64,000 nt of DNA, taken from the NCBI GenBank assembly GCA_964511075.1, contig CAZEDM010000005.1, positions 135,427 to 199,426 of the forward strand. Reading direction: 5' to 3'. A program made the translations under genes and the position numbers. The notes under the pieces were generated by a model. The model saw only the letters and a list, made by a program, of their open reading frames with translations. It ran no database searches and was not told the origin of the DNA. This document shows positions 6,382 through 64,000 of the stretch, in pieces (position 1 is the stretch's first letter; each line of letters opens with the position of its first letter). Origin of the DNA: an uncultured Ignavibacteria bacterium (lineage in GTDB: Bacteria; Zixibacteria; MSB-5A5; RBG-16-43-9).

Positions 6382-7665
6382 GTGCTTATGTTTAAAAAAA
6401 TCTTCATATTATCTCTTTTCCTGCTTTTTATTTTACTCCTGTTTCCCCTTAATTCGGACGCTCAAAAGATTCTGGTCCCCATGGATTTTTCTCAGTCTGA
6501 CCATCTTAAAGGCTACGGCGTTGCCTACTGGTGCTTAAAACAGGGTTATACTGTGGAATGGCTTCTGAATTACAGAGCTGGCTCCTTTATGGCAGACTAC
6601 CGGGAGAATATCGCCGATCGCTGCAGGCTACAGGGCGTAACCTTCGAGAATATAGACTTAGCCCAAGCTGGCTCCATCTATCAGGAGATAGAGGAGAACA
6701 ATATGGAGGTGGTCTTGCTGGAGAAGGCTCCAGCCATTGCAGTATATGTCCCACCTAACAAGGAACCCTGGGACGATGCGGTAAGACTGGCTTTGGCTTA
6801 TGCTGAGATCCCCTATAAGACCTTATGGGATGTGGAGGTCTTGAAGGGTGAGCTGGAGAAATACGACTGGCTGCATCTGCATCACGAGGATTTCACCGGG
6901 CAGTACGGGAAGTTCTATGCCAGTTTCAGAAACGAGCCCTGGTACCAGGAGGAACAGGCAACCTGCGAGGAAATTGCTAAAAAATTAGGCTTCAAAAAAG
7001 TCTCTGAGGAAAAAAAAGCAATAGCTCGGGCAATCAAAAACTACGTGGCCCAGGGAGGGTTTCTTTTTGCCATGTGCTCTGCCCCAGAGACTATGGACAT
7101 AGCCTTATCTGCAGAGGATGTGGATATTGTGCCCCAGGAGTTCGATGGAGACCCTCCTGATCCCGATTGTCAGAAGAAGTTGGATTATTCCAAGACCTTT
7201 GCCCTTACCGACTTCATCCTGTCCTTAAACCCCCTGGAATATAAACACTCCGATATAGACACCTATTTAGACCGCTTCACCTGGGGCATAGATAAGCGCA
7301 ACGATTATTTTACCCTTTTCGATTTCTCCGCCAAGCTGGACCCAGTTCCCTCGATGCTGGTCCAGGACCATGTTAACGTGGTCAGGGGCTTTATGGGACA
7401 GACCACCGCTTTCAGAAAATCACTTTTGAAAAAATATGTTACCATCTTAGGTGAGGTAGAGGGGCAGGATGAGGTTAGATATATTCACGGTAATTTCGGA
7501 AGGGGAACTTTCACCTTTTTATCCGGGCACGACCCGGAGGATTACGAACACCGGGTAGGCGACCCACCCACAGATTTGAGCCTGCACAAGAACTCACCCG
7601 GCTACCGCTTGATTCTGAATAACATCCTTTTCCCCGCAGCCAAAAAAAAGGAGAGGAAAACCTGA
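6382..7665 (+). CDS. secreted hypothetical protein (signal peptide), flanked by MITE-like repeats
   Basis: Hydrophobic N-terminus MFKKIFILSLFLLFILLLFPLNSDAQ. No confident family match from sequence alone. The real start is probably the ATG at 6388. Confidence 0.5.
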   Translation: MLMFKKIFILSLFLLFILLLFPLNSDAQKILVPMDFSQSDHLKGYGVAYWCLKQGYTVEWLLNYRAGSFMADYRENIADRCRLQGVTFENIDLAQAGSIYQEIEENNMEVVLLEKAPAIAVYVPPNKEPWDDAVRLALAYAEIPYKTLWDVEVLKGELEKYDWLHLHHEDFTGQYGKFYASFRNEPWYQEEQATCEEIAKKLGFKKVSEEKKAIARAIKNYVAQGGFLFAMCSAPETMDIALSAEDVDIVPQEFDGDPPDPDCQKKLDYSKTFALTDFILSLNPLEYKHSDIDTYLDRFTWGIDKRNDYFTLFDFSAKLDPVPSMLVQDHVNVVRGFMGQTTAFRKSLLKKYVTILGEVEGQDEVRYIHGNFGRGTFTFLSGHDPEDYEHRVGDPPTDLSLHKNSPGYRLILNNILFPAAKKKERKT

Positions 7666-7715
7666 AGGGAATTCTATAGCAAAGATAGACACTATACAGG
7701 TGTTTGTTAGTAGAC

Positions 7716-7775
7716 GGTAGCCACGGCCTTTAGGTTGCGGGTCCTATAAGGCAGTCTAAAGTCTGCGGCTACCAA
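7716..7775. repeat. REP-like long imperfect hairpin (GGTAGCCAC...GCGGCTACC)
   Basis: Inverted repeat GGTAGCCACGGCC ... CTGCGGCTACC with a GTAG head. Confidence 0.4.
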
Positions 7776-7807
7776 CTAAGAAATATAAGAAATAAAGGAA
7801 AACATAT

Positions 7808-7892
7808 TCACCCTCCCTTTTTATTCCCTCCCGTCAAGGGAGGGAAAATTCAGTTTCCTCTCCCCCTGTGGGAGAGGACTAAGGAGAGGGTG
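7808..7892 (+). repeat. 85-bp MITE-like element, copy 2
   Basis: Roughly 85% identical to the copy at 6220-6300, same orientation. Confidence 0.8.
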
Positions 7893-7907
7893 CATAAGAA
7901 GATATAA

Positions 7908-7993
7908 TTCACCCTCCCCTTAATTCCCTCCCTTCGAGGGAGGGAAAATTCTGTTCCCTCTCCCCTGGTGGGAGAGGGGTAGGAAGAGGGGGG
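7908..7993 (+). repeat. 85-bp MITE-like element, copy 3 (tandem with copy 2)
   Basis: Same family; the two tandem copies are 15 bp apart. Confidence 0.8.
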
Positions 7994-8004
7994 AAAATAA
8001 TAAA

Positions 8005-9198
8005 ATGAAAACCCCGGTTAAAATCTATTACTTTATTCAGTTTCTCTCCAGTTTAGCCTTTGGCTCGATTATTCCCATCTATGTGCTTTATTTCAGGGAG
8101 TACCAGCTCAATCTTTTCCAGATAGCCCTGTTAGCCTCCGTATTTGAAGCCTCCATCTTAATAACCGAGCTCCCCACCGGGTATCTGGCGGATTTATATG
8201 GACGTAAGCTCTCGGTTATCCTTTCCAGCTTGTCTTTATTTTTCGGAGGAGCAGTTTTCATACTCTTTCCATCTCTGGCTGGATTTATCCTGGCTGAGAT
8301 TTTAGTGGGCCTGGGTGAGAGCTTAAAATCCGGAGCGTTAGATGCCTGGATAGTTGATTCCTTGAAATACCAGAATGAGGCTGAGAAGCAAAAAAAGGTT
8401 TTCGGAACAGGCACGAAATACAAAACCGCGGGAAATCTAATCGGGTTAATCTTCGGTGGCTATTTGGGTTTTTTTAATCTCAAGTTAACCTGGTTTCCTT
8501 TCACACTTATCTTTTTCTTCTCCTTTTTCTTCCTCTTTTTGTTTATGACGGAAGAATACCGCACAGGGACAGAGAGTACCCCTCACAGGGTAAAACCGCT
8601 CAAACAGTTGAGGGAAACTGTACGGGAAAGCTTTTCACTTCTGAGACTTGAAAAAACAATTTTGGCTCTGATTATCCTGGGGCTTTTTTCCGAATTCTCC
8701 TATGAAACCATAAGCCAGTATTGGCAGGTTCACTTCTATGAGGGTTTAAAGATAAGCCCGGAATATTTCGGCTGGATAGCTGCTGCCTCCTCTGTGATTC
8801 TGATATTATCTTTGAATCTGGTCATGAAACTATCCTCAAGGTTCAAATCGGAAGCCAACTTCGTGCTCCTGCTGCAGTTTGGCTTTATAAGCTCTCTTGT
8901 AATTATCGCCTTGAGCATAAGCCCTTTTTTAGCCATAATGCTCTTCGTTCTCTTACAGACATTCCAGGGGTTCAAGGAGCCTATTTTACTGGATCTGTAT
9001 AACAGATCCATCCCTTCCCACAGACGAGCTACCCTGCTTTCATTTATAAATCTTACCAATTCCACCGGGGAGGTCTTAGCCGGACTGTGTATCGGCATAA
9101 TTGCCTTAAAGTTAGGGTTAAGGGTAACCTTTCTTTTCGGTTCTTCTATCCTTGTGGTAGGAATAATCTTATTTTATCTGGTAAAAAAGAGAAGGTGA
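8005..9198 (+). CDS. MFS transporter
   Basis: About 12 predicted TM helices and the MFS loop motif GYLADLYGRK between TM2 and TM3. Confidence 0.8.
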   Translation: MKTPVKIYYFIQFLSSLAFGSIIPIYVLYFREYQLNLFQIALLASVFEASILITELPTGYLADLYGRKLSVILSSLSLFFGGAVFILFPSLAGFILAEILVGLGESLKSGALDAWIVDSLKYQNEAEKQKKVFGTGTKYKTAGNLIGLIFGGYLGFFNLKLTWFPFTLIFFFSFFFLFLFMTEEYRTGTESTPHRVKPLKQLRETVRESFSLLRLEKTILALIILGLFSEFSYETISQYWQVHFYEGLKISPEYFGWIAAASSVILILSLNLVMKLSSRFKSEANFVLLLQFGFISSLVIIALSISPFLAIMLFVLLQTFQGFKEPILLDLYNRSIPSHRRATLLSFINLTNSTGEVLAGLCIGIIALKLGLRVTFLFGSSILVVGIILFYLVKKRR

Positions 9199-59235: not shown

Positions 59236-59715
59236 TCAGAGGCTCTTGAAAACCGTCTCCACATGCGGCTGGAAACCCATCTTTCTCCAGAATGCTTTTG
59301 CTGTCTCGTTTAAGACGGCAACCCGAAGCTCGATGCGATGCACTCCCCGTTCCGCAAACCACGACTCGGCATTTTTGTACATCTTCTCGCCTATCCCTGC
59401 CCGGCGGCACCTTTGAGTAACTGCCAGATCATATACGCTTCCGTAGTCCCGGTTCTCGAATACCGGCGGATATTTTGCCAGCATTGCCAGGCAGTACCCC
59501 ACCAAAACACCTTCTTTTTCCGCCACCAGAACCAGGGAGCCATCTTTTTCGAGATGGCACGCTATAAACTCCTTGAAGTGCTCGTGCCCATCTGCTGCCC
59601 GGGTAAAAATAGGGTCTCGTTCTTTGTGAAAGTCCATAAACTCCTGCCACAGAAGCCCGATGGACTCTAAGTCCTTTGCAGTTGCCTTGCATATAACCAA
59701 CTCTGATGTTTTCAT
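59236..59715 (-). CDS. GNAT family N-acetyltransferase
   Basis: QRCRRAGIGEKM acetyl-CoA binding motif in a roughly 160-aa protein. Confidence 0.7.
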   Translation of the reverse strand: MKTSELVICKATAKDLESIGLLWQEFMDFHKERDPIFTRAADGHEHFKEFIACHLEKDGSLVLVAEKEGVLVGYCLAMLAKYPPVFENRDYGSVYDLAVTQRCRRAGIGEKMYKNAESWFAERGVHRIELRVAVLNETAKAFWRKMGFQPHVETVFKSL

Positions 59716-59732
59716 TGAAATTTAGACTCCAT

Positions 59733-60263
59733 TTATACCGTTAACGGGATGCGCTTAATTGTCTGTACCGTATCATTCTCATATTTCGCCACGTCAAGCG
59801 CAGAGATGCACCCAGCTATGGCAAATTCCTCCCTGTTCCAGGTTTCAATCATCTCCAGGCACTTCAGAGGGTCTTTTGAGTTCCCAACCCCCATATGCGG
59901 AACAAAGTCAACAAAGAGCGCCCGCTGTGGAAATAGTTTATCGGCATACAGTTTGTCGTGTAGCTTTACGATTTTGCTGTACCCCTCGTCCGGCACCAGA
60001 AAAGTGTGATAATTATCGTTGAAGGAATCTTTATTGAGGACGGCACAGCGCAGGCAGAACTTAAGTGCTTGAACGCCTTGGGCTTGCCTTTCGATTTCCG
60101 AGATAAAAGGCTCGGCTTCCCAGCCTTTGCGTATGGGAAATACCAGAGTAAAATGCGGCTCGACTATATGGTAATACAACTCGTCGTTATCTTTTCTGAA
60201 TTCCTGTATCCGCTCATAATCGCTTTTTTTGATTTCCGGATACGCAATCACTATCAGTGCCAT
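59733..60263 (-). CDS. hypothetical protein, possibly 2H-phosphoesterase-like (one canonical HxTx motif)
   Basis: PHFTLVF is canonical H-x-T-x. PHMGVG is a degenerate second motif. Weak assignment. Confidence 0.3.
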   Translation of the reverse strand: MALIVIAYPEIKKSDYERIQEFRKDNDELYYHIVEPHFTLVFPIRKGWEAEPFISEIERQAQGVQALKFCLRCAVLNKDSFNDNYHTFLVPDEGYSKIVKLHDKLYADKLFPQRALFVDFVPHMGVGNSKDPLKCLEMIETWNREEFAIAGCISALDVAKYENDTVQTIKRIPLTV

Positions 60264-60344
60264 AGCTATTACTCCCTATTATGAAAGCTGATTTGAAAAC
60301 TATCTTACATTTCCCTGCTTGGAGCTACTTTGGTTATTTTCCTC

Positions 60345-61049
60345 TCACATCTTCCTGCCAACTGCAATCAGGCGCCGACTTGACCGGCGAAATTTTTCGC
60401 CTTTGAAAGAGCCGTAGATTTTATCTATTATCAAGCCGGCTTGCTCGAACAACTTTTTTGTCTCCCCAAAGGTGTAGAGCCGCATAGAAGAGCTATTCTT
60501 AGGGTCGTTGCGCCCGTTGACGATCCTGCGGGAGATAATCTGCTTTGTATCCTTGTCCCAGTGGTTACGTACAATCACCTCACCGCGGCGTTTCTCAGGC
60601 ATGAAGTGCCGCAGGATATATTCGCGATAGACTTGATCGATCAGCAAACGACCGCCTGGACGTAGCGCGCGAGCATAACGCCGGAGGAGTTCGAAATTTT
60701 CCTCATCCGAAAAATAGCCGAAACTGCCTCCCCAGTTGAAAATCCCGTCGAACTCCTCTTCAAAATCCAGTTTGCGCAGGTCCATAACCCGGAATCTGCC
60801 GGATAAACCCTGAGTGCGAAATCTGCGACGTGCACGATTCACAAATTGCAAACGCAGGTCGATACCAGTGACAGAGAAGCCCTGATGTGCCAGATGAAAG
60901 GCAATACGCCCTGCCCCGCAAGGCGCATCCAGCACACTTTGCCCCTTGCTCAACCGCAAAGCTCTCTTGATGAACCGGGCCTCTTCTTCTCCCTCCTTAT
61001 CCGGAAGAAGCCAGAGAGACTCTTCCATTGTCTCAAACCAGTCTGGCAT
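60345..61049 (-). CDS. class I SAM-dependent methyltransferase
   Basis: VLDAPCGAGRIAFHLAHQGFSVTGIDL (motif I and post-I acidic residue). Confidence 0.75.
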   Translation of the reverse strand: MPDWFETMEESLWLLPDKEGEEEARFIKRALRLSKGQSVLDAPCGAGRIAFHLAHQGFSVTGIDLRLQFVNRARRRFRTQGLSGRFRVMDLRKLDFEEEFDGIFNWGGSFGYFSDEENFELLRRYARALRPGGRLLIDQVYREYILRHFMPEKRRGEVIVRNHWDKDTKQIISRRIVNGRNDPKNSSSMRLYTFGETKKLFEQAGLIIDKIYGSFKGEKFRRSSRRLIAVGRKM

Positions 61050-61176
61050 GATTCGGTTCCTATAGGGCAGATGAAATTGATAGTTTTTCTTTATTGATAA
61101 AACCTATAAGCTCTAACATTCGAATTAAGCGACTGGACTTGCGCAAAGCGCGAGAACGAGCCGCTTGAATAAGGTA

Positions 61177-61803
61177 TTATGAGTTTTTATTTTTTCGTTT
61201 GTCAATAATATTTAATAAATGCGTTGCTAACAACAGCATTTCAAATGTTTCCCTAAACTCAAGTTCAACATCTCTATGGCTGTGAGGATTTTTATATAAC
61301 CCTATAGTGCCACAAAAAAGGTCAGATATGGCTTGTCTTTCTGCTTTTGGAACGGAGGTGTCAGTTAAGGGACCCTTTTCAAGCTCAAAAGCCTTTCTCA
61401 TTAGCTGAACCCCTATTAAGTCAGAAGAAAAGCCACATGCTTTTCTTGCCTCTATTTCTACTGCCTTAAACGCTTTAAAAACAGCATCGGAGAATTCTGA
61501 GCGCTCTACATGTGGCAAACATTTTTTTATGATTATTTCATGGAATAGTAGAGAAGGGACTAAAGTCCACTTACCTATCAGACGTTGAAAATCTTCTTCT
61601 TTAAATTGGACTCCTTTTTGTGTAGGGTGGAGGATTTCTCCATCTTCACCCTGTTCTATTTGAAATAATCGTAAGTCAATAAAGGTATAGGGACTATCTT
61701 TATATTTTACTCTTGATAGTCGAATTCTCTCATATGATCTTCTTGAGATCTCGACAATAGTTTCTTGGAAAAGAATATTTGATTTTATGTTTTTTTTACT
61801 CAT
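61177..61803 (-). CDS. hypothetical protein with C-terminal TIGR02391/Hypoth_Ymh-like (HEPN-like, Abi-associated) domain
   Basis: C-terminal AVFKAFKAVEIEARKA...LMRKAFELEKGPL...LFCGTIGLYKNPHSHRDVE...LLLATHLL fits the remembered TIGR02391 consensus. N-terminal roughly 100 aa unassigned. Confidence 0.55.
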   Translation of the reverse strand: MSKKNIKSNILFQETIVEISRRSYERIRLSRVKYKDSPYTFIDLRLFQIEQGEDGEILHPTQKGVQFKEEDFQRLIGKWTLVPSLLFHEIIIKKCLPHVERSEFSDAVFKAFKAVEIEARKACGFSSDLIGVQLMRKAFELEKGPLTDTSVPKAERQAISDLFCGTIGLYKNPHSHRDVELEFRETFEMLLLATHLLNIIDKRKNKNS

Positions 61804-61811
61804 AACATAGG

Positions 61812-61860
61812 TTTATCTGTACTAATTATATTGCGCTTACTGTCTTTCTGGCCATAGAAA
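61812..61860 (-). repeat. copy A of a ~48-bp conserved element directly upstream of the Ymh-like gene
   Basis: GTTTATCTGTACTAATTATATTGCGCTTACTGTCTTTCTGGCCATAG versus copy B at 62815-62863: identical 16-mer TTATCTGTACTAATTA and about 80% identity overall. Confidence 0.7.
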
Positions 61861-61881
61861 CCTCACTTAACACGACTTTCC

Positions 61882-62052
61882 TCATAAGTCTTCAAAGAAC
61901 TTTTTGACTTCAGAAACTGACGTATCATTAGAAAAAGATTTCAACACTCTACCGTGGATACCATTCTCACGTACTTCAATCTCACCTGTATCGTGCTTGT
62001 AGGAGAGAGCGTACTTTTTTTCATCTGTGTGCATCCACAGCACGTTTTTCAT
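61882..62052 (-). CDS. unannotated small ORF (56 aa: MKNVLWMHTDEKKYALSYKHDTGEIEVRENGIHGRVLKSFSNDTSVSEVKKFFEDL) between the TIR and Ymh-like genes
   Basis: ATG at 62052 (minus) with GGGGAG 2-3 nt upstream. Same strand as the flanking defence genes. Below the ORF-track threshold. Confidence 0.4.
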   Translation of the reverse strand: MKNVLWMHTDEKKYALSYKHDTGEIEVRENGIHGRVLKSFSNDTSVSEVKKFFEDL

Positions 62053-62136
62053 TTCTCCCCTATGTTCCTTAACGAAAATTTGTTGACTTTTCCAGATAAT
62101 GGCACCTGCAATTGCGTGGTAGATATAACCCGCCGC

Positions 62137-62781
62137 CTATGGGTAATTAAGAATAGAATCAGCATTACAAACCGCACATCGAAATTTACCATATCGATGG
62201 ATTTTATAATTGGAGGAACACTTCCAACACTGCACATCGATTCCAAATGAAGGTTTAGACTTATTAAATAGAAGCAAACCCGCTAAACCAACTGCAAAAC
62301 CTGCTGCGGCTCCTTCACCCCTATCTCTCTCGTTCAATAGAGCTCCCCCCACTGTTGCAGCAGACAACGTGGGAACCACATGTGAATCATCATAGTTCTC
62401 GATTATTGAACGCAGATATTTACGCCATTCTTCAGTTTTTTCAAAAAGTACATAATGATTTAAGCGAGGGATGATGACTCTGATTTTACCTAAAGACTCG
62501 ACTGGTTCAAAGATCCAAATATATTTATTCTTAGCTGTACCGCATTCCCAGGTAATCCAATCTCTCGTATGTTTGAGATTTTCAACATTTTCACTTAGCA
62601 AAACAAAGACGGCGTTTGATGCCTGTATGTCTCGCTCAATTTTCTCAGCCGTCACACCGCTTGGTGGGTCTTTCTCCAATTCTTCAAGATGGGGCTTCAC
62701 TTTAGTTCCAGCGAATGCCTCCAAAAAGAAATGAATTATGTCTTTATCAATCTTGCTATGGGATATGAATACCTGTGCCAT
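62137..62781 (-). CDS. TIR-domain protein with predicted TM segment and C-terminal zinc ribbon
   Basis: N-terminal VFISHSKIDKD (TIR alpha-A/beta-A signature), DWITWE (W-x3-E, putative catalytic Glu), AAAGFAVGLAGLLLF hydrophobic helix, and C-terminal CWKC...(12)...CAVC. Confidence 0.65.
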   Translation of the reverse strand: MAQVFISHSKIDKDIIHFFLEAFAGTKVKPHLEELEKDPPSGVTAEKIERDIQASNAVFVLLSENVENLKHTRDWITWECGTAKNKYIWIFEPVESLGKIRVIIPRLNHYVLFEKTEEWRKYLRSIIENYDDSHVVPTLSAATVGGALLNERDRGEGAAAGFAVGLAGLLLFNKSKPSFGIDVQCWKCSSNYKIHRYGKFRCAVCNADSILNYP

Positions 62782-62814
62782 TATTTGCCCTTCCTTAAGA
62801 CAAGTAATCTAAAA

Positions 62815-62863
62815 TAGTTTTATCTGTACTAATTAAATCGCTATCACTGCCTTTCTAGACCAT
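62815..62863 (-). repeat. copy B of the ~48-bp conserved element upstream of the TIR gene
   Basis: GTTTTATCTGTACTAATTAAATCGCTATCACTGCCTTTCTAGACCATG. Lies 30-80 nt upstream of the TIR start, which has an AAGGAAGGG RBS. Confidence 0.7.
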
Positions 62864-62926
62864 GCAGTAAAATTCACCGCTGGCATTTTTGCCGACCGCT
62901 GAAATGATTTTTCACTACCCTTATAT

Positions 62927-63538
62927 TTATGCTGCAAGTCCAATGATAATCAAAGGAACTGCGGGAACGCCGCGACCCTGCCTAACGACATTGTAGATTT
63001 CACCTTCATAATAGGGCACGCCGGAACTCATGTGTGATTGGAGAGATTTCATTGGTAGGATTTCAACACCGACGTCAATATAGTCGCCGACGTAGAAGGC
63101 AAGATGTTTTACGAAGAGGTCGTAGGCTACGAATGAATATTTACCGAACTGCACTTCAACGGCCACTCGGTCTTTGACAAAATCGGTCTGGTTGTAGCTA
63201 AAAATAGGCACTTCGCCTGCTGCCTCAATTTCTTTCTTCTGTGCCTCCGGTGTCATAGTAAGTGTCTTTCGAATCAGCTTTTCACTCTTAGTTACCCAAT
63301 AACTGACCCGACTCTCTTCCCAGCTCTTGGCACGCAGCAGTCTTTTAAAGTCAGCATTCATACCAACAGGACTATAAAGAATTTCACCCTTCATCGTTTT
63401 CTCTTTGGAAACTTTGGCCTTGAACTTTTCTGCATCCACGTTTTTAATGACGGATTGCACTTCTCGCCACAGACCGGGTTTGTGAACCAGAAGAAATTCG
63501 CGGCCATTTAGATGGGAATAGGTTTCTACAATTTTCAT
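62927..63538 (-). CDS. type II restriction endonuclease, BglII-like fold
   Basis: DFVKDRVAVEVQFG has D-x8-E-x-Q spacing identical to the BglII catalytic motif (D84/E93/Q95), in a roughly 200-aa protein. The ATG overlaps the upstream methyltransferase stop (ATGA). Confidence 0.6.
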   Translation of the reverse strand: MKIVETYSHLNGREFLLVHKPGLWREVQSVIKNVDAEKFKAKVSKEKTMKGEILYSPVGMNADFKRLLRAKSWEESRVSYWVTKSEKLIRKTLTMTPEAQKKEIEAAGEVPIFSYNQTDFVKDRVAVEVQFGKYSFVAYDLFVKHLAFYVGDYIDVGVEILPMKSLQSHMSSGVPYYEGEIYNVVRQGRGVPAVPLIIIGLAA

Positions 63539-64000
63539 CTTGTCTGGTATCTAATCTTCCTCTCTTTAATTAACAAGATTTGCTTCGAGTTTTCGGAATT
63601 GACCCAGGGGGCTGAAGTTAGCTTATTACCCGCTTCAATTGGATCATACACAGGTTTGTCCATTGGCCGGGTTTTCAAAGTTCCAATGAGTTCTTGCTGT
63701 ATTCTGTTTTTGGCCAATTCAATGTACTTGGGAACTATCTCTGCACCTGCCCCACGGCGATTATGACGAATAGCGGCAATGATTGAACTACCTGTACCAA
63801 GAAAGGGATCTAAAACCCAATCCCCTTCATTTGTCATTGCAAGAACGAGGCGCTCTATCAGTTCCACAGGGAATTGACAGGGATGTTCAGTTTTTTCAAC
63901 ATGGTTACTCTTTACATTAGGAATAACCCATAAATCTCCCGGGTTTTTACCCAGAGGATTGCAAGAGTATTTTCCGGCATTTGGTCCTTTAAAATGTTTT
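63535..64000 (-). CDS. DNA methyltransferase, beta-class N4-cytosine/N6-adenine (C-terminal part; N-terminus beyond the window end)
   Basis: HPCQFPVELIERLVLAMTNEGDWVLDPFLGTGSS matches the conserved HP..KP.eL...li......VLDPF.GSGTT block of N4/N6 methylases. The ORF is open to the window edge. Confidence 0.75.
   Translation of the reverse strand, partial: KHFKGPNAGKYSCNPLGKNPGDLWVIPNVKSNHVEKTEHPCQFPVELIERLVLAMTNEGDWVLDPFLGTGSSIIAAIRHNRRGAGAEIVPKYIELAKNRIQQELIGTLKTRPMDKPVYDPIEAGNKLTSAPWVNSENSKQILLIKERKIRYQTR

Follow-up and report, generated by a model that had tools for sequence, protein, structure and literature searches.

A variable mnmE–mnmG insertion as a probable patchwork of defence-type modules, with a TIR–hairpin–zinc-ribbon protein and a PC4-HEPN fusion as uncharacterised single-gene candidates

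The minus-strand gene block at the end of the 64,000-nucleotide stretch analysed here (the window) is most likely a patchwork: self-contained modules of defence type, each acquired independently, that lie within a variable insertion flanked by mnmE and mnmG. All five minus-strand open reading frames that an earlier note on this DNA had claimed are present where it placed them, and profile and structure matches showed that their assignment to defence-type genes and the domain calls were correct. The description as a compact defence island holds for the type of genes, but these are unrelated modules side by side and not one system. The region is an insertion into a conserved gene row near oriC, with the order dnaA / rpmH rnpA yidC mnmE, about 12 extra genes, and then mnmG rsmG parA parB. 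That the block is strongly AT-rich and hence acquired was an overstatement, as its GC content of 0.399 is ordinary in comparison to 0.433 in the window (z = -0.9). The Ymh gene (0.346) is the only clearly AT-rich gene of the block, the GC outliers are the adjoining GNAT and SAM-methyltransferase genes (0.51-0.52), and the range among adjacent genes is mixed (0.35 to 0.52).

The 3' part of a gene for a beta-class DNA methyltransferase is located at 63535..64000 (-) and matches PF01555 with 1.7e-24 for the in-window part. The full gene encodes 316 aa, extends past the window end, and reaches 2.6e-51 with PF01555 for the full-length protein in L001. The motif order, with SPPY preceding FLGTGSS, is that of the beta class, the SPPY motif is of the N4-cytosine type, and the PADLOC model MTase_II is matched with 5.5e-34. 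The neighboring gene (62927..63538, -) encodes a BstYI-type Type IIP restriction endonuclease with the BglII/BamHI fold (PF09195, 1.6e-33; PADLOC REase_II, 1e-95) that aligned with BstYI (PDB 1sdo) over 202 of 203 residues (4.5e-91). The TGA of the methyltransferase overlaps the ATG of the endonuclease as ATGA, and the pair is therefore translationally coupled, in agreement with the earlier claim of a methylase coupled to a BglII-like nuclease, which is now identified as a BstYI orthologue. The cognate methyltransferase and endonuclease lie within one operon, as in Type II restriction-modification (R-M) systems of the BstYI type. The BstYI system has the same endonuclease over nearly the full length, as well as the same PF01555 methyltransferase fold with the SPPY-FxGxG order, and shows no notable difference from the pair found here; the R-M system of this locus is thus of an already known type. 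Based on BstYI orthology, the predicted specificity is R^GATCY, and the window shows no depletion of RGATCY sites (60 observed, 59.6 expected).

The TIR-like protein of 214 aa (62137..62781, -) was delineated by profile matches, structure prediction, and homologue alignment. It comprises a TIR fold (residues 1-128), a hydrophobic, Gly/Ala-rich helical hairpin (135-174), and a four-cysteine zinc ribbon (181-211). The predicted structure of the first part is a TIR (flavodoxin-like) fold, and the best fold and profile matches were TIR domains and ThsB models. The score for Pfam TIR_2 was below the gathering cut-off, and a sequence-based comparison of PDB chains with the TIR-domain profile gave no match, even at E 10. 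W75-I-T-W-E79 within helix 72-82 is invariant across 50 homologues, and the W-x3-E motif noted earlier is thus indeed retained; motif and position suggest that E79 is the equivalent of the catalytic Glu. Of the single TM helix that had been proposed, the hydrophobic segment remains, but it is a short Gly/Ala hairpin with putative membrane insertion and not one helix. Two uncharged helices of ~15 residues each (135-149 and 158-172) are separated by the conserved charged turn NE[KR]DRG. As the hydrophobic helices have only this length and the Kyte-Doolittle maximum over 19 residues is 1.32 (compared to 2.19 for a 15-mer and a family median of 1.58 for a 19-mer), a true membrane span is uncertain. 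One homologue matched the Pfam glycine-zipper families PF05433 and PF13488. The CxxC...CxxC ribbon could be substantiated, with the knuckles C185-x2-C188 and C202-x2-C205, both invariant in homologues, on a small beta-sheet of four short strands predicted in 181-211. The family profile weakly matched Rpb12/RPABC4 (0.0074) and S27e.

Among the PADLOC models, none beyond ThsB matched the TIR protein, with residues 3-85 aligning to positions 37-118 of the 183-position model; in contrast to ThsB, the protein has the hydrophobic hairpin and the C-terminal zinc ribbon, which lie outside this matched region. Canonical Thoeris was ruled out, as a TIR-domain ThsB is present but ThsA (SIR2, or Macro/TM with SLOG) is absent within 10 kb on either side of the locus, and PADLOC detected nothing in the neighboring hypothetical proteins of this 20-kb context. 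A defence-related combination of TIR domains and hydrophobic or TM elements is likewise found in Rst_2TM_1TM_TIR, which is listed among defence systems (bioRxiv 10.1101/2024.10.26.620412), and in TIR or TM effectors of Pycsar/CBASS. However, TM and TIR are found in separate proteins in those systems, or they depend on a cyclase signal, whereas TIR, hairpin, and zinc ribbon are here on one chain, and no cyclase or sensor-domain neighbor of the TIR gene was found at the locus.

The last gene of the block (61177..61803, -) encodes a protein with a PC4-like ssDNA-binding domain and a Ymh/TIGR02391 HEPN domain. Both profiles scored above their curated cut-offs (PF09509, 3.4e-22, 79 bits versus 25; TIGR02391, 1.3e-13, 51.1 bits versus 39.45), and the assignment to this family, for which the earlier note had suggested PF09509 as a check, was therefore justified. 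The PC4-like domain (about residues 10-79) has the four-stranded curved beta-sheet and subsequent helix of PC4/YdbC as well as family-level sequence similarity, and the HEPN helical fold is present in the predicted structure of the second domain (about residues 87-207). HEPN motifs are defined by R-x4-6-H at the end of helix 3, together with an upstream E-x3-[KR] (PMC3710099). E116-x3-R120 is present and invariant among homologues, and K171-N-P-H-S-H176 directly follows helix 153-170; its Lys, likewise invariant, replaces the canonical Arg. The Ymh family has been classed as HEPN and is known in the form of solos and in R-M operons, and the fusions described include pMORC, AbiJ-NTD1/2, and AbiTii, with no mention of PC4 (Anantharaman et al. 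2013, PMC3710099). The protein analysed here differs from that description by its PC4-like N-terminal partner and by the Lys in the motif. More than 220 matches retained the full-length architecture, and the closest homologue comes from a Cloacimonetes MAG. A literature search for PC4 and HEPN returned nothing relevant. The neighboring LigT-like and SAM-methyltransferase genes were considered as HEPN partners and rejected, as they do not recur beside Ymh homologues. The Ymh domain also gave a weak and partial match to PD-Lambda-3_B (1.2e-5, residues 87-177). PD-lambda-3, which was reportedly described by Vassallo et al. in 2022, is a two-gene system, and no PD-Lambda-3_A match was found at the locus. 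It acts by abortive infection (PMC13190303).

The annotated 56-aa ORF between these two genes (61882-62052) belongs to a 5'-truncated gene remnant of the Vch_cass14 family (61882..62136, -). It matched PF18315 (3.2e-11) at profile positions 49-93 of 97, which is the C-terminal half only, and residues 79-132 of PDB 3IMO. A word-index search returned only the ORF itself, and the relatives were obtained by exhaustive search; they are mostly 109-122 aa long and align from about residue 57, and an intact gene of the family encodes ~113 aa. The homology continues in frame upstream of the ORF up to the TIR stop codon and aligns with full-length members, and the ORF together with 28 upstream in-frame codons corresponds to the C-terminal two-thirds of the family. 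As the first 27-30 residues with the conserved R..HHA motif are missing and there is no start codon for the middle segment, the ORF is a remnant and not a full family member. In comparison, Vch_cass14 (PDB 3IMO) is a full-length alpha+beta domain of ~110 aa whose N-terminal helices are not present here, and the N-terminal region of Vch_cass14 contributes to the dimer interface and the hydrophobic pocket (PMC3548836).

A ~50-nt imperfect direct repeat, delineated by pairwise alignment and with only two copies in the window, is found directly upstream of the TIR gene (62810..62861, -; exact 17-nt core TAATTAGTACAGATAAA at 62819-62835) and directly upstream of the Ymh gene (61803..61853, -), where it touches the start codon and overlaps the sigma-70-like match TGGCCA-18-TATAAT. 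This repeat is probably a shared promoter region. Similar expression of the TIR and Ymh genes may follow from the common upstream sequence, which may leave room for some local functional coupling of the two. A role of the repeat as a signal linked to a mobile element or to the gene families was rejected, as TIR and Ymh homologues elsewhere are preceded by neither the 17-nt core nor the 50-nt repeat, with a mere faint likeness upstream of the closest Ymh homologue. Folding of the DNA 62782-62929 (-) revealed a hairpin followed by TTTT just past the endonuclease stop (62873..62903, -; MFE -15.7, z = -2.3), which was retained in the centroid and probably terminates the R-M operon. A stem-loop without a T-run just past the Ymh stop (61127..61166, -), seen in the MFE and centroid folds, is possibly a terminator as well; the region as a whole was not significant (z = -0.67).

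The TIR and Ymh genes are adjacent on the same strand with short gaps and share the repeat, and one could thus imagine that the TIR and Ymh/HEPN proteins constitute, together with the small ORF, one new multi-gene system, in which, for example, TIR would serve as the sensor or generate a signal and HEPN would be the RNase effector. We consider this very improbable. In searches with tblastn and HMM, no Ymh or 56-aa relative was found within about 6 kb of TIR homologues at 29 genomic loci (median 12.6 kb), and no TIR or 56-aa relative was found near Ymh homologues at 80 metagenomic loci, many of which are short (median 3.9 kb, at least 5 kb in 29 of them); TIR and 56-aa relatives were also absent from the gene tables of six loci of the closest Ymh homologues. 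Moreover, the middle ORF is a truncated remnant, no sensor of nucleotide signals such as SLOG, Macro, CARF, or SAVED could be recognised in the Ymh protein, and the repeat does not accompany the homologues. We rejected the single TIR–Ymh(–56 aa) system on this zero co-occurrence, an outcome that the earlier note had itself named as a refutation of its proposal, and the two genes most likely adjoin here through chance of island assembly. An integron-like cassette array (CALIN), in which promoterless cassettes are split by attC sites, has in its favor the remnant of an integron cassette protein family, the small co-oriented genes of widely differing GC, and the stem-loop past the Ymh stop, but it is the least probable of all explanations and was rejected. 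Folding of the four intergenic gaps revealed no repeated attC-like imperfect palindromes, with three gaps folding no better than shuffles and the fourth containing the single terminator-like hairpin, and no integrase is present in 20 kb of context. In addition, the sole repeat is direct and upstream of genes rather than downstream, and the methyltransferase and endonuclease genes overlap as an operon.

With more than 200 matches that keep the full-length architecture, the TIR-hairpin-ribbon family occurs in at least ten lineages that range from Acidobacteriota to Lokiarchaeum, with both Asgard and methanogenic archaea among them, and with 59-82% identity to the TIR protein among the matches listed; no match was obtained in the viral, plasmid, and phage collections searched. 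All members belong to uncultured lineages, which would account for the family having escaped testing. A non-immune role as a membrane-associated housekeeping, signalling, or toxin protein, with the TIR-like domain as scaffold or nucleoside-processing enzyme, appears unlikely. The family is distributed patchily over bacteria and archaea of unrelated phyla and at the same time highly identical in sequence, by which horizontal transfer is implied; copies are interrupted, frame-split, or shortened in L007, L020, L023, and L027, the top matches were to TIR domains and to ThsB models, and the homologues elsewhere are usually found among defence genes, which agrees with the initial view of the protein as defence-associated. 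These neighbors include Type ISP/IIG R-M, MkoA, AriA, PtuA, PD-T4-6 kinases, other TIR proteins, Schlafen, and E1/Ubl/JAB genes. Somewhat less likely still, the TIR protein could belong, as effector or sensor, to a larger system with a varying partner, such as the adjoining R-M here or the E1/Ubl/JAB operons. In line with this, a same-strand ThiF/E1 gene is immediately upstream of three distant homologues (L006, L015, and L027), of which L006 also has a ubiquitin-like gene and L027 a JAB domain. Type ISP R-M is immediately upstream in L003 and L004, and the BstYI-type R-M lies upstream here. However, any single partner recurs in at most 3-4 of the 29 loci, no conserved neighbor family was found for the TIR or the Ymh protein, and the TIR gene is set apart from the R-M operon by the terminator-like hairpin as well as a promoter-like region of its own. 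Literature searches for TIR with transmembrane/zinc ribbon, with glycine zipper, or with ThiF and JAB gave nothing relevant. The family is thus large, conserved, uncharacterised, and without a fixed partner.

In the preferred patchwork, the modules would be the R-M operon closed by its own hairpin, the TIR protein, which stands alone and has a promoter region to itself, the dead Vch_cass14-family remnant, presumably left by a recombination that joined it to the 3' end of the TIR gene, and the stand-alone PC4-HEPN protein. The Gly/Ala hairpin may hold the TIR protein at the cytoplasmic membrane face or drive helix-helix oligomerisation, and the zinc ribbon may serve in sensing or interaction; once clustered by a trigger, the TIR domains would build the Glu79 active site, which would cleave NAD+ and thereby abort infection. 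In the other protein, the PC4-like domain could bind ssDNA, for example phage replication or injection intermediates, and this would license the HEPN RNase site (E-x3-R and K-N-x3-H) to cut RNA as an Abi-type response. The NADase and RNase activities, the membrane association, and the sensing roles of zinc ribbon and PC4 are in this sense what we infer. As points against the preferred explanation, we counted the Lys in the HEPN motif, the TIR_2 score below gathering together with the missing sequence match in the PDB, the short hydrophobic helices, the ~50-nt repeat shared by the TIR and Ymh genes, the short length of many metagenomic Ymh loci, and the 59-82% identity across phyla, which exceeds what is usual for defence genes.

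The locus as a whole is an ordinary defence island, and its remaining value lies in the TIR family and the PC4-HEPN fusion, two uncharacterised candidates of one gene each, neither of whose architectures was found in the literature searched. We tentatively propose, as a joint and rather uncertain claim, that the first is a new self-contained, single-gene, membrane-associated effector and the second a single-chain ssDNA sensor-RNase. If so, the hairpin would either bring an NADase to where the phage genome enters or produce a lethal membrane lesion by itself, in an effector family spread by horizontal transfer through numerous bacterial phyla and through archaea, Asgard lineages among them. If the TIR protein protects alone against phage, it would be a compact effector with trigger and localisation encoded in a single chain of 214 aa, and the PC4-HEPN fusion would be a simple model of ssDNA sensing coupled to an RNase. 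Both genes are small and easily synthesised and tested. As a side aspect, the TIR gene ends with TAG where homologues read Gln and extend about 10 aa more; as TAG terminates 12 of the 50 long ORFs in the window, recoding or readthrough that would fuse TIR to the downstream remnant was ruled out.

The ORF list reproduced exactly the positions that the earlier note had given for five consecutive minus-strand genes (61177-64000), and its reading of this block as a defence island is supported. Judging from profile and motif matches, the methylase and nuclease genes form a BstYI-type restriction-modification (R-M) system, which is of a known kind and offers nothing new. The beta-class DNA methylase (63535 to past 64000, minus strand) matched PF01555 with 1.7e-24 for the part inside the window and with 2.6e-51 for the complete protein of 316 aa encoded in L001, a public 61-kb contig with the same locus; its TSPPY precedes DPFLGTGSS, which is the beta-class order, and motif IV is of the N4-cytosine type. 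The TGA of the methylase and the ATG of the nuclease overlap as ATGA, confirming the coupling noted before. The nuclease (203 aa, 62927-63538, minus strand) could be aligned with BstYI (PDB 1sdo) over 202 of its 203 residues (E 4.5e-91) and matched PF09195 (1.6e-33) and the PADLOC model REase_II (1e-95). Directly 3' of its stop codon, a hairpin followed by TTTT (62873-62903, minus strand; fold z-score -2.3) probably marks the end of the R-M operon. Upstream of the methylase gene and outside the window, L001 carries three hypothetical genes (6557-8173; about 160, 230, and 102 aa) for which Pfam and PADLOC searches gave no match. The 102-aa protein, with a faint HTH_7 match (0.038), could be a candidate R-M controller or another island gene.

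The TIR-like protein (214 aa, 62137-62781, minus strand) matched the PADLOC ThsB profile (2.4e-8), whereas the Pfam TIR_2 match (2e-4, 22.3 bits) stayed under the 28-bit cut-off, and a sequence search of the PDB with the TIR part returned zero matching chains; the sequence evidence for the TIR identity is thus modest. The predicted model consists of a beta/alpha core (residues 1-128), two helices (135-149 and 154-174), and a four-stranded ribbon (181-211), and its fold matches are PdTIR, MyD88, SARM1, Cat1, B. cereus TIR, and AbTIR, with concordant Foldseek results. F5, S7, H8, S9, W75, W78, E79, G81, W119, and R120 are invariant in 50 family sequences, as are the four ribbon cysteines C185, C188, C202, and C205. 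As W75 and E79, located in helix 72-82, are among these invariant residues, the W-x3-E motif recognized earlier is real and conserved, and by motif and position E79 is the putative counterpart of the catalytic glutamate of TIR NADases. The proposed hydrophobic helix was correct as to a hydrophobic element but not as to a single helix: it is a hairpin in which two Gly/Ala-rich helices, uncharged and each about 15 residues long, are joined by a conserved charged turn, NE[KR]DRG. Hydropathy of the hairpin is high over 15 residues (2.19) and reaches only 1.32 over 19 residues, with a family median of 1.58, which leaves a classical membrane span uncertain. One homologue has Pfam glycine-zipper matches. 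The ribbon resembles the zinc ribbons of Rpb12 and S27e. In this combination of TIR, hairpin, and zinc ribbon, the family is an uncharacterised variant among TIR defence proteins.

TIR NADase active sites assemble across oligomer interfaces, as established for SARM1, AbTir, plant TIRs, and SPARTA. A trigger might cause clustering of the TIR domains and thereby switch on NAD+ cleavage via E79. The hairpin would then act as a tether on the membrane's inner side or mediate helix packing, and the zinc ribbon could serve as an interaction or sensing module. Alternatively, the hairpin might, as a glycine zipper, be a membrane-damaging effector by itself.

The earlier note had further proposed that the TIR-like and Ymh proteins are paired as one system, with co-occurrence in other genomes as the touchstone. 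Using tblastn, neither the Ymh nor the 56-aa protein was found in 29 loci with TIR-protein homologues (median 12.6 kb), and neither the TIR-like nor the 56-aa protein was found in 80 metagenomic Ymh loci, which are often short (29 of the 80 reach at least 5 kb). Hidden Markov models of the three family alignments gave no cross-match at E 1 against all six-frame ORFs of these loci, and the two closest Ymh homologues among the matches listed (86% and 75% identical) have surroundings unlike this one, with no TIR gene. As co-occurrence was absent from these loci, a specific TIR-Ymh system is not supported, and the proposal fails by its own measure.

The homologue search for the TIR family gave 206 matches; among the 120 listed, the query's own cluster being left out, identity was 59-82%, and most matches had about 224 aa with 97-100% query coverage. 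The 29 loci, found by scanning a single genome for each species, belong to bacteria (Deltaproteobacteria, several Acidobacteriota, Bacteroidota, Nitrospira, Sedimentisphaerales, Thermotogae) and archaea (Lokiarchaeum, Njordarchaeum, Methanophagales, Methanoregula), and there were zero matches in IMG/VR, PLSDB, and the phage collection. When all neighbouring ORFs were clustered, no family occurred in more than 4 of the 29 loci. The neighbours include Type ISP/IIG R-M, MkoA, AriA, PtuA, and PD-T4-6-type kinases, as well as other TIR proteins, Schlafen/AlbA, an Upf1-like helicase, and a reverse transcriptase. Several copies appear decayed (L007 4917-6462, L020 6001-6441, L023 139-761, and L027 6001-6653): the copy in L007 is broken by a 270-aa reverse-strand ORF, the match in L020 is limited to query residues 1-145, those in L023 and L027 are in two pieces, and splitting across frames also occurs. 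This spread without a recurrent partner, together with the defence neighbours and the decayed copies, marks a self-contained gene that moves from one defence island to another. A possible sub-pattern is the linkage to ThiF/E1, as in three distant loci such a gene lies directly upstream of the TIR-family gene on the same strand (L006 1958-5246, L015 4030-6648, L027 3940-6662). L006 also has a ubiquitin-like gene, and in L027 a JAB domain is fused to E1 and a SIR2-like gene is close by; these loci may represent a Bil-like ubiquitin-type defence operon tied to the TIR family.

The Ymh protein (208 aa, 61177-61803, minus strand) belongs to the TIGR02391/Ymh family as had been suggested, with PF09509 (79 bits) and TIGR02391 (51 bits) both exceeding the curated cut-offs. 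Its AlphaFold2 model (pLDDT 87.4) shows a four-stranded sheet with a helix (residues 10-79), which corresponds to a PC4-like ssDNA-binding domain, and then a helical bundle. The invariant residues include E116-x3-R120 and K171-N-P-H-S-H176, the latter at the end of helix 153-170, where the R-x4-6-H motif of HEPN domains is positioned (PMC3710099); the lysine, at which arginine is canonical, is invariant in 45 sequences. An invariant arginine (R177) directly follows the motif histidine. Ymh has been classed as a HEPN family that occurs as solos and within R-M operons, with pMORC, AbiJ-NTD, and AbiTii given as fusions and PC4 unmentioned (PMC3710099). The family is therefore already known, and its PC4 fusion is without description in the literature searched. 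Among 220 homologues, named 'TIGR02391 family protein' by their sources, the 120 listed were 55-86% identical; no conserved neighbour was found, and plasmids and nine viral contigs also carry the HEPN part. A weak match to PD-Lambda-3_B (1.2e-5) links the protein loosely to PD-lambda-3, which acts by abortive infection (PMC13190303). Conceivably, binding of ssDNA by the PC4-like domain could license the HEPN RNase.

Between these two genes, the 56-aa ORF (61882-62052, minus strand) is, by homology, the end of a Vch_cass14-family gene that has lost its 5' part. It covers profile positions 49-93 of the 97 of PF18315 and matches residues 79-132 of the 3IMO chain; its relatives, searched for exhaustively among 1.8 billion representatives, mostly have 109-122 aa, with the match beginning near their residue 57. 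Translation in frame upstream of its ATG yields AAGYIYHAIAGAIIWKSQQIFVKEHRGE, which aligns with the middle of full-length family members, and the homology spans the 'intergenic' 84 nt as far as the TIR stop codon, extending the remnant to 61882-62139 (minus strand). What is lacking is the first 27-30 residues, with a conserved R..HHA, so that the ORF is what remains of a gene truncated at its 5' end. The TIR ORF is in frame with this remnant, and a single TAG separates the two, which would suit a recoded fusion. This was ruled out, as TAG is an ordinary stop that ends 12 of the 50 long ORFs in the window, and the boundary is therefore a junction scar. The TAG aligns with a glutamine of the TIR homologues, which run about 10 residues further (...PQMAGYI...). 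Folding of four intergenic regions and 20 kb of gene context revealed no attC-like structures or integrase at the locus.

In L001, the gene order is dnaN, dnaA, rpmH, rnpA, yidC, mnmE, about twelve extra genes, mnmG, rsmG, parA, parB (with a bar between dnaA and rpmH). The extra genes (L001 5128-17912; window about 54870 to beyond 64000) are, in order, three hypothetical genes, the R-M pair, the TIR gene, the remnant, the Ymh gene, and genes for a SAM methyltransferase, a 2H/LigT-like protein, a GNAT, and an M1 peptidase. The block is therefore part of an insertion in a conserved origin-proximal row, and the mnmE-mnmG interval looks like a variable hotspot beside oriC. The description of the block as strongly AT-rich was overstated, as its GC content is 0.399 versus 0.433 for the window (z = -0.9) and the Ymh gene alone (0.346) stands out as low. 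The adjacent GNAT, 2H/LigT-like (2'-5' RNA ligase family), and SAM methyltransferase genes (59236-61049, minus strand) range from 0.46 to 0.52, with the GNAT and SAM methyltransferase genes as high outliers (0.51-0.52), and this mosaic fits piecemeal acquisition. The SAM methyltransferase matched the PADLOC mad2 model (2e-21), which may merely reflect the common methyltransferase domain.

An imperfect direct repeat of about 50 nt, whose exact 17-nt core is TAATTAGTACAGATAAA, is found directly upstream of the TIR gene (62810-62861) and the Ymh gene (61803-61853), both on the minus strand, and these are the only two copies in the 64-kb window. The Ymh copy overlaps a sigma-70-like match, TGGCCA-18-TATAAT. 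Among the matches listed, the repeat was absent upstream of TIR and Ymh homologues elsewhere, apart from a faint resemblance at the closest Ymh homologue. Most simply, the repeat is read as a duplicated promoter region, through which the two genes would be expressed similarly, in this genome only. The only Rfam family exceeding its gathering score in the window is a cobalamin riboswitch (RF00174, 17101-17271, minus strand, 88.4 bits).
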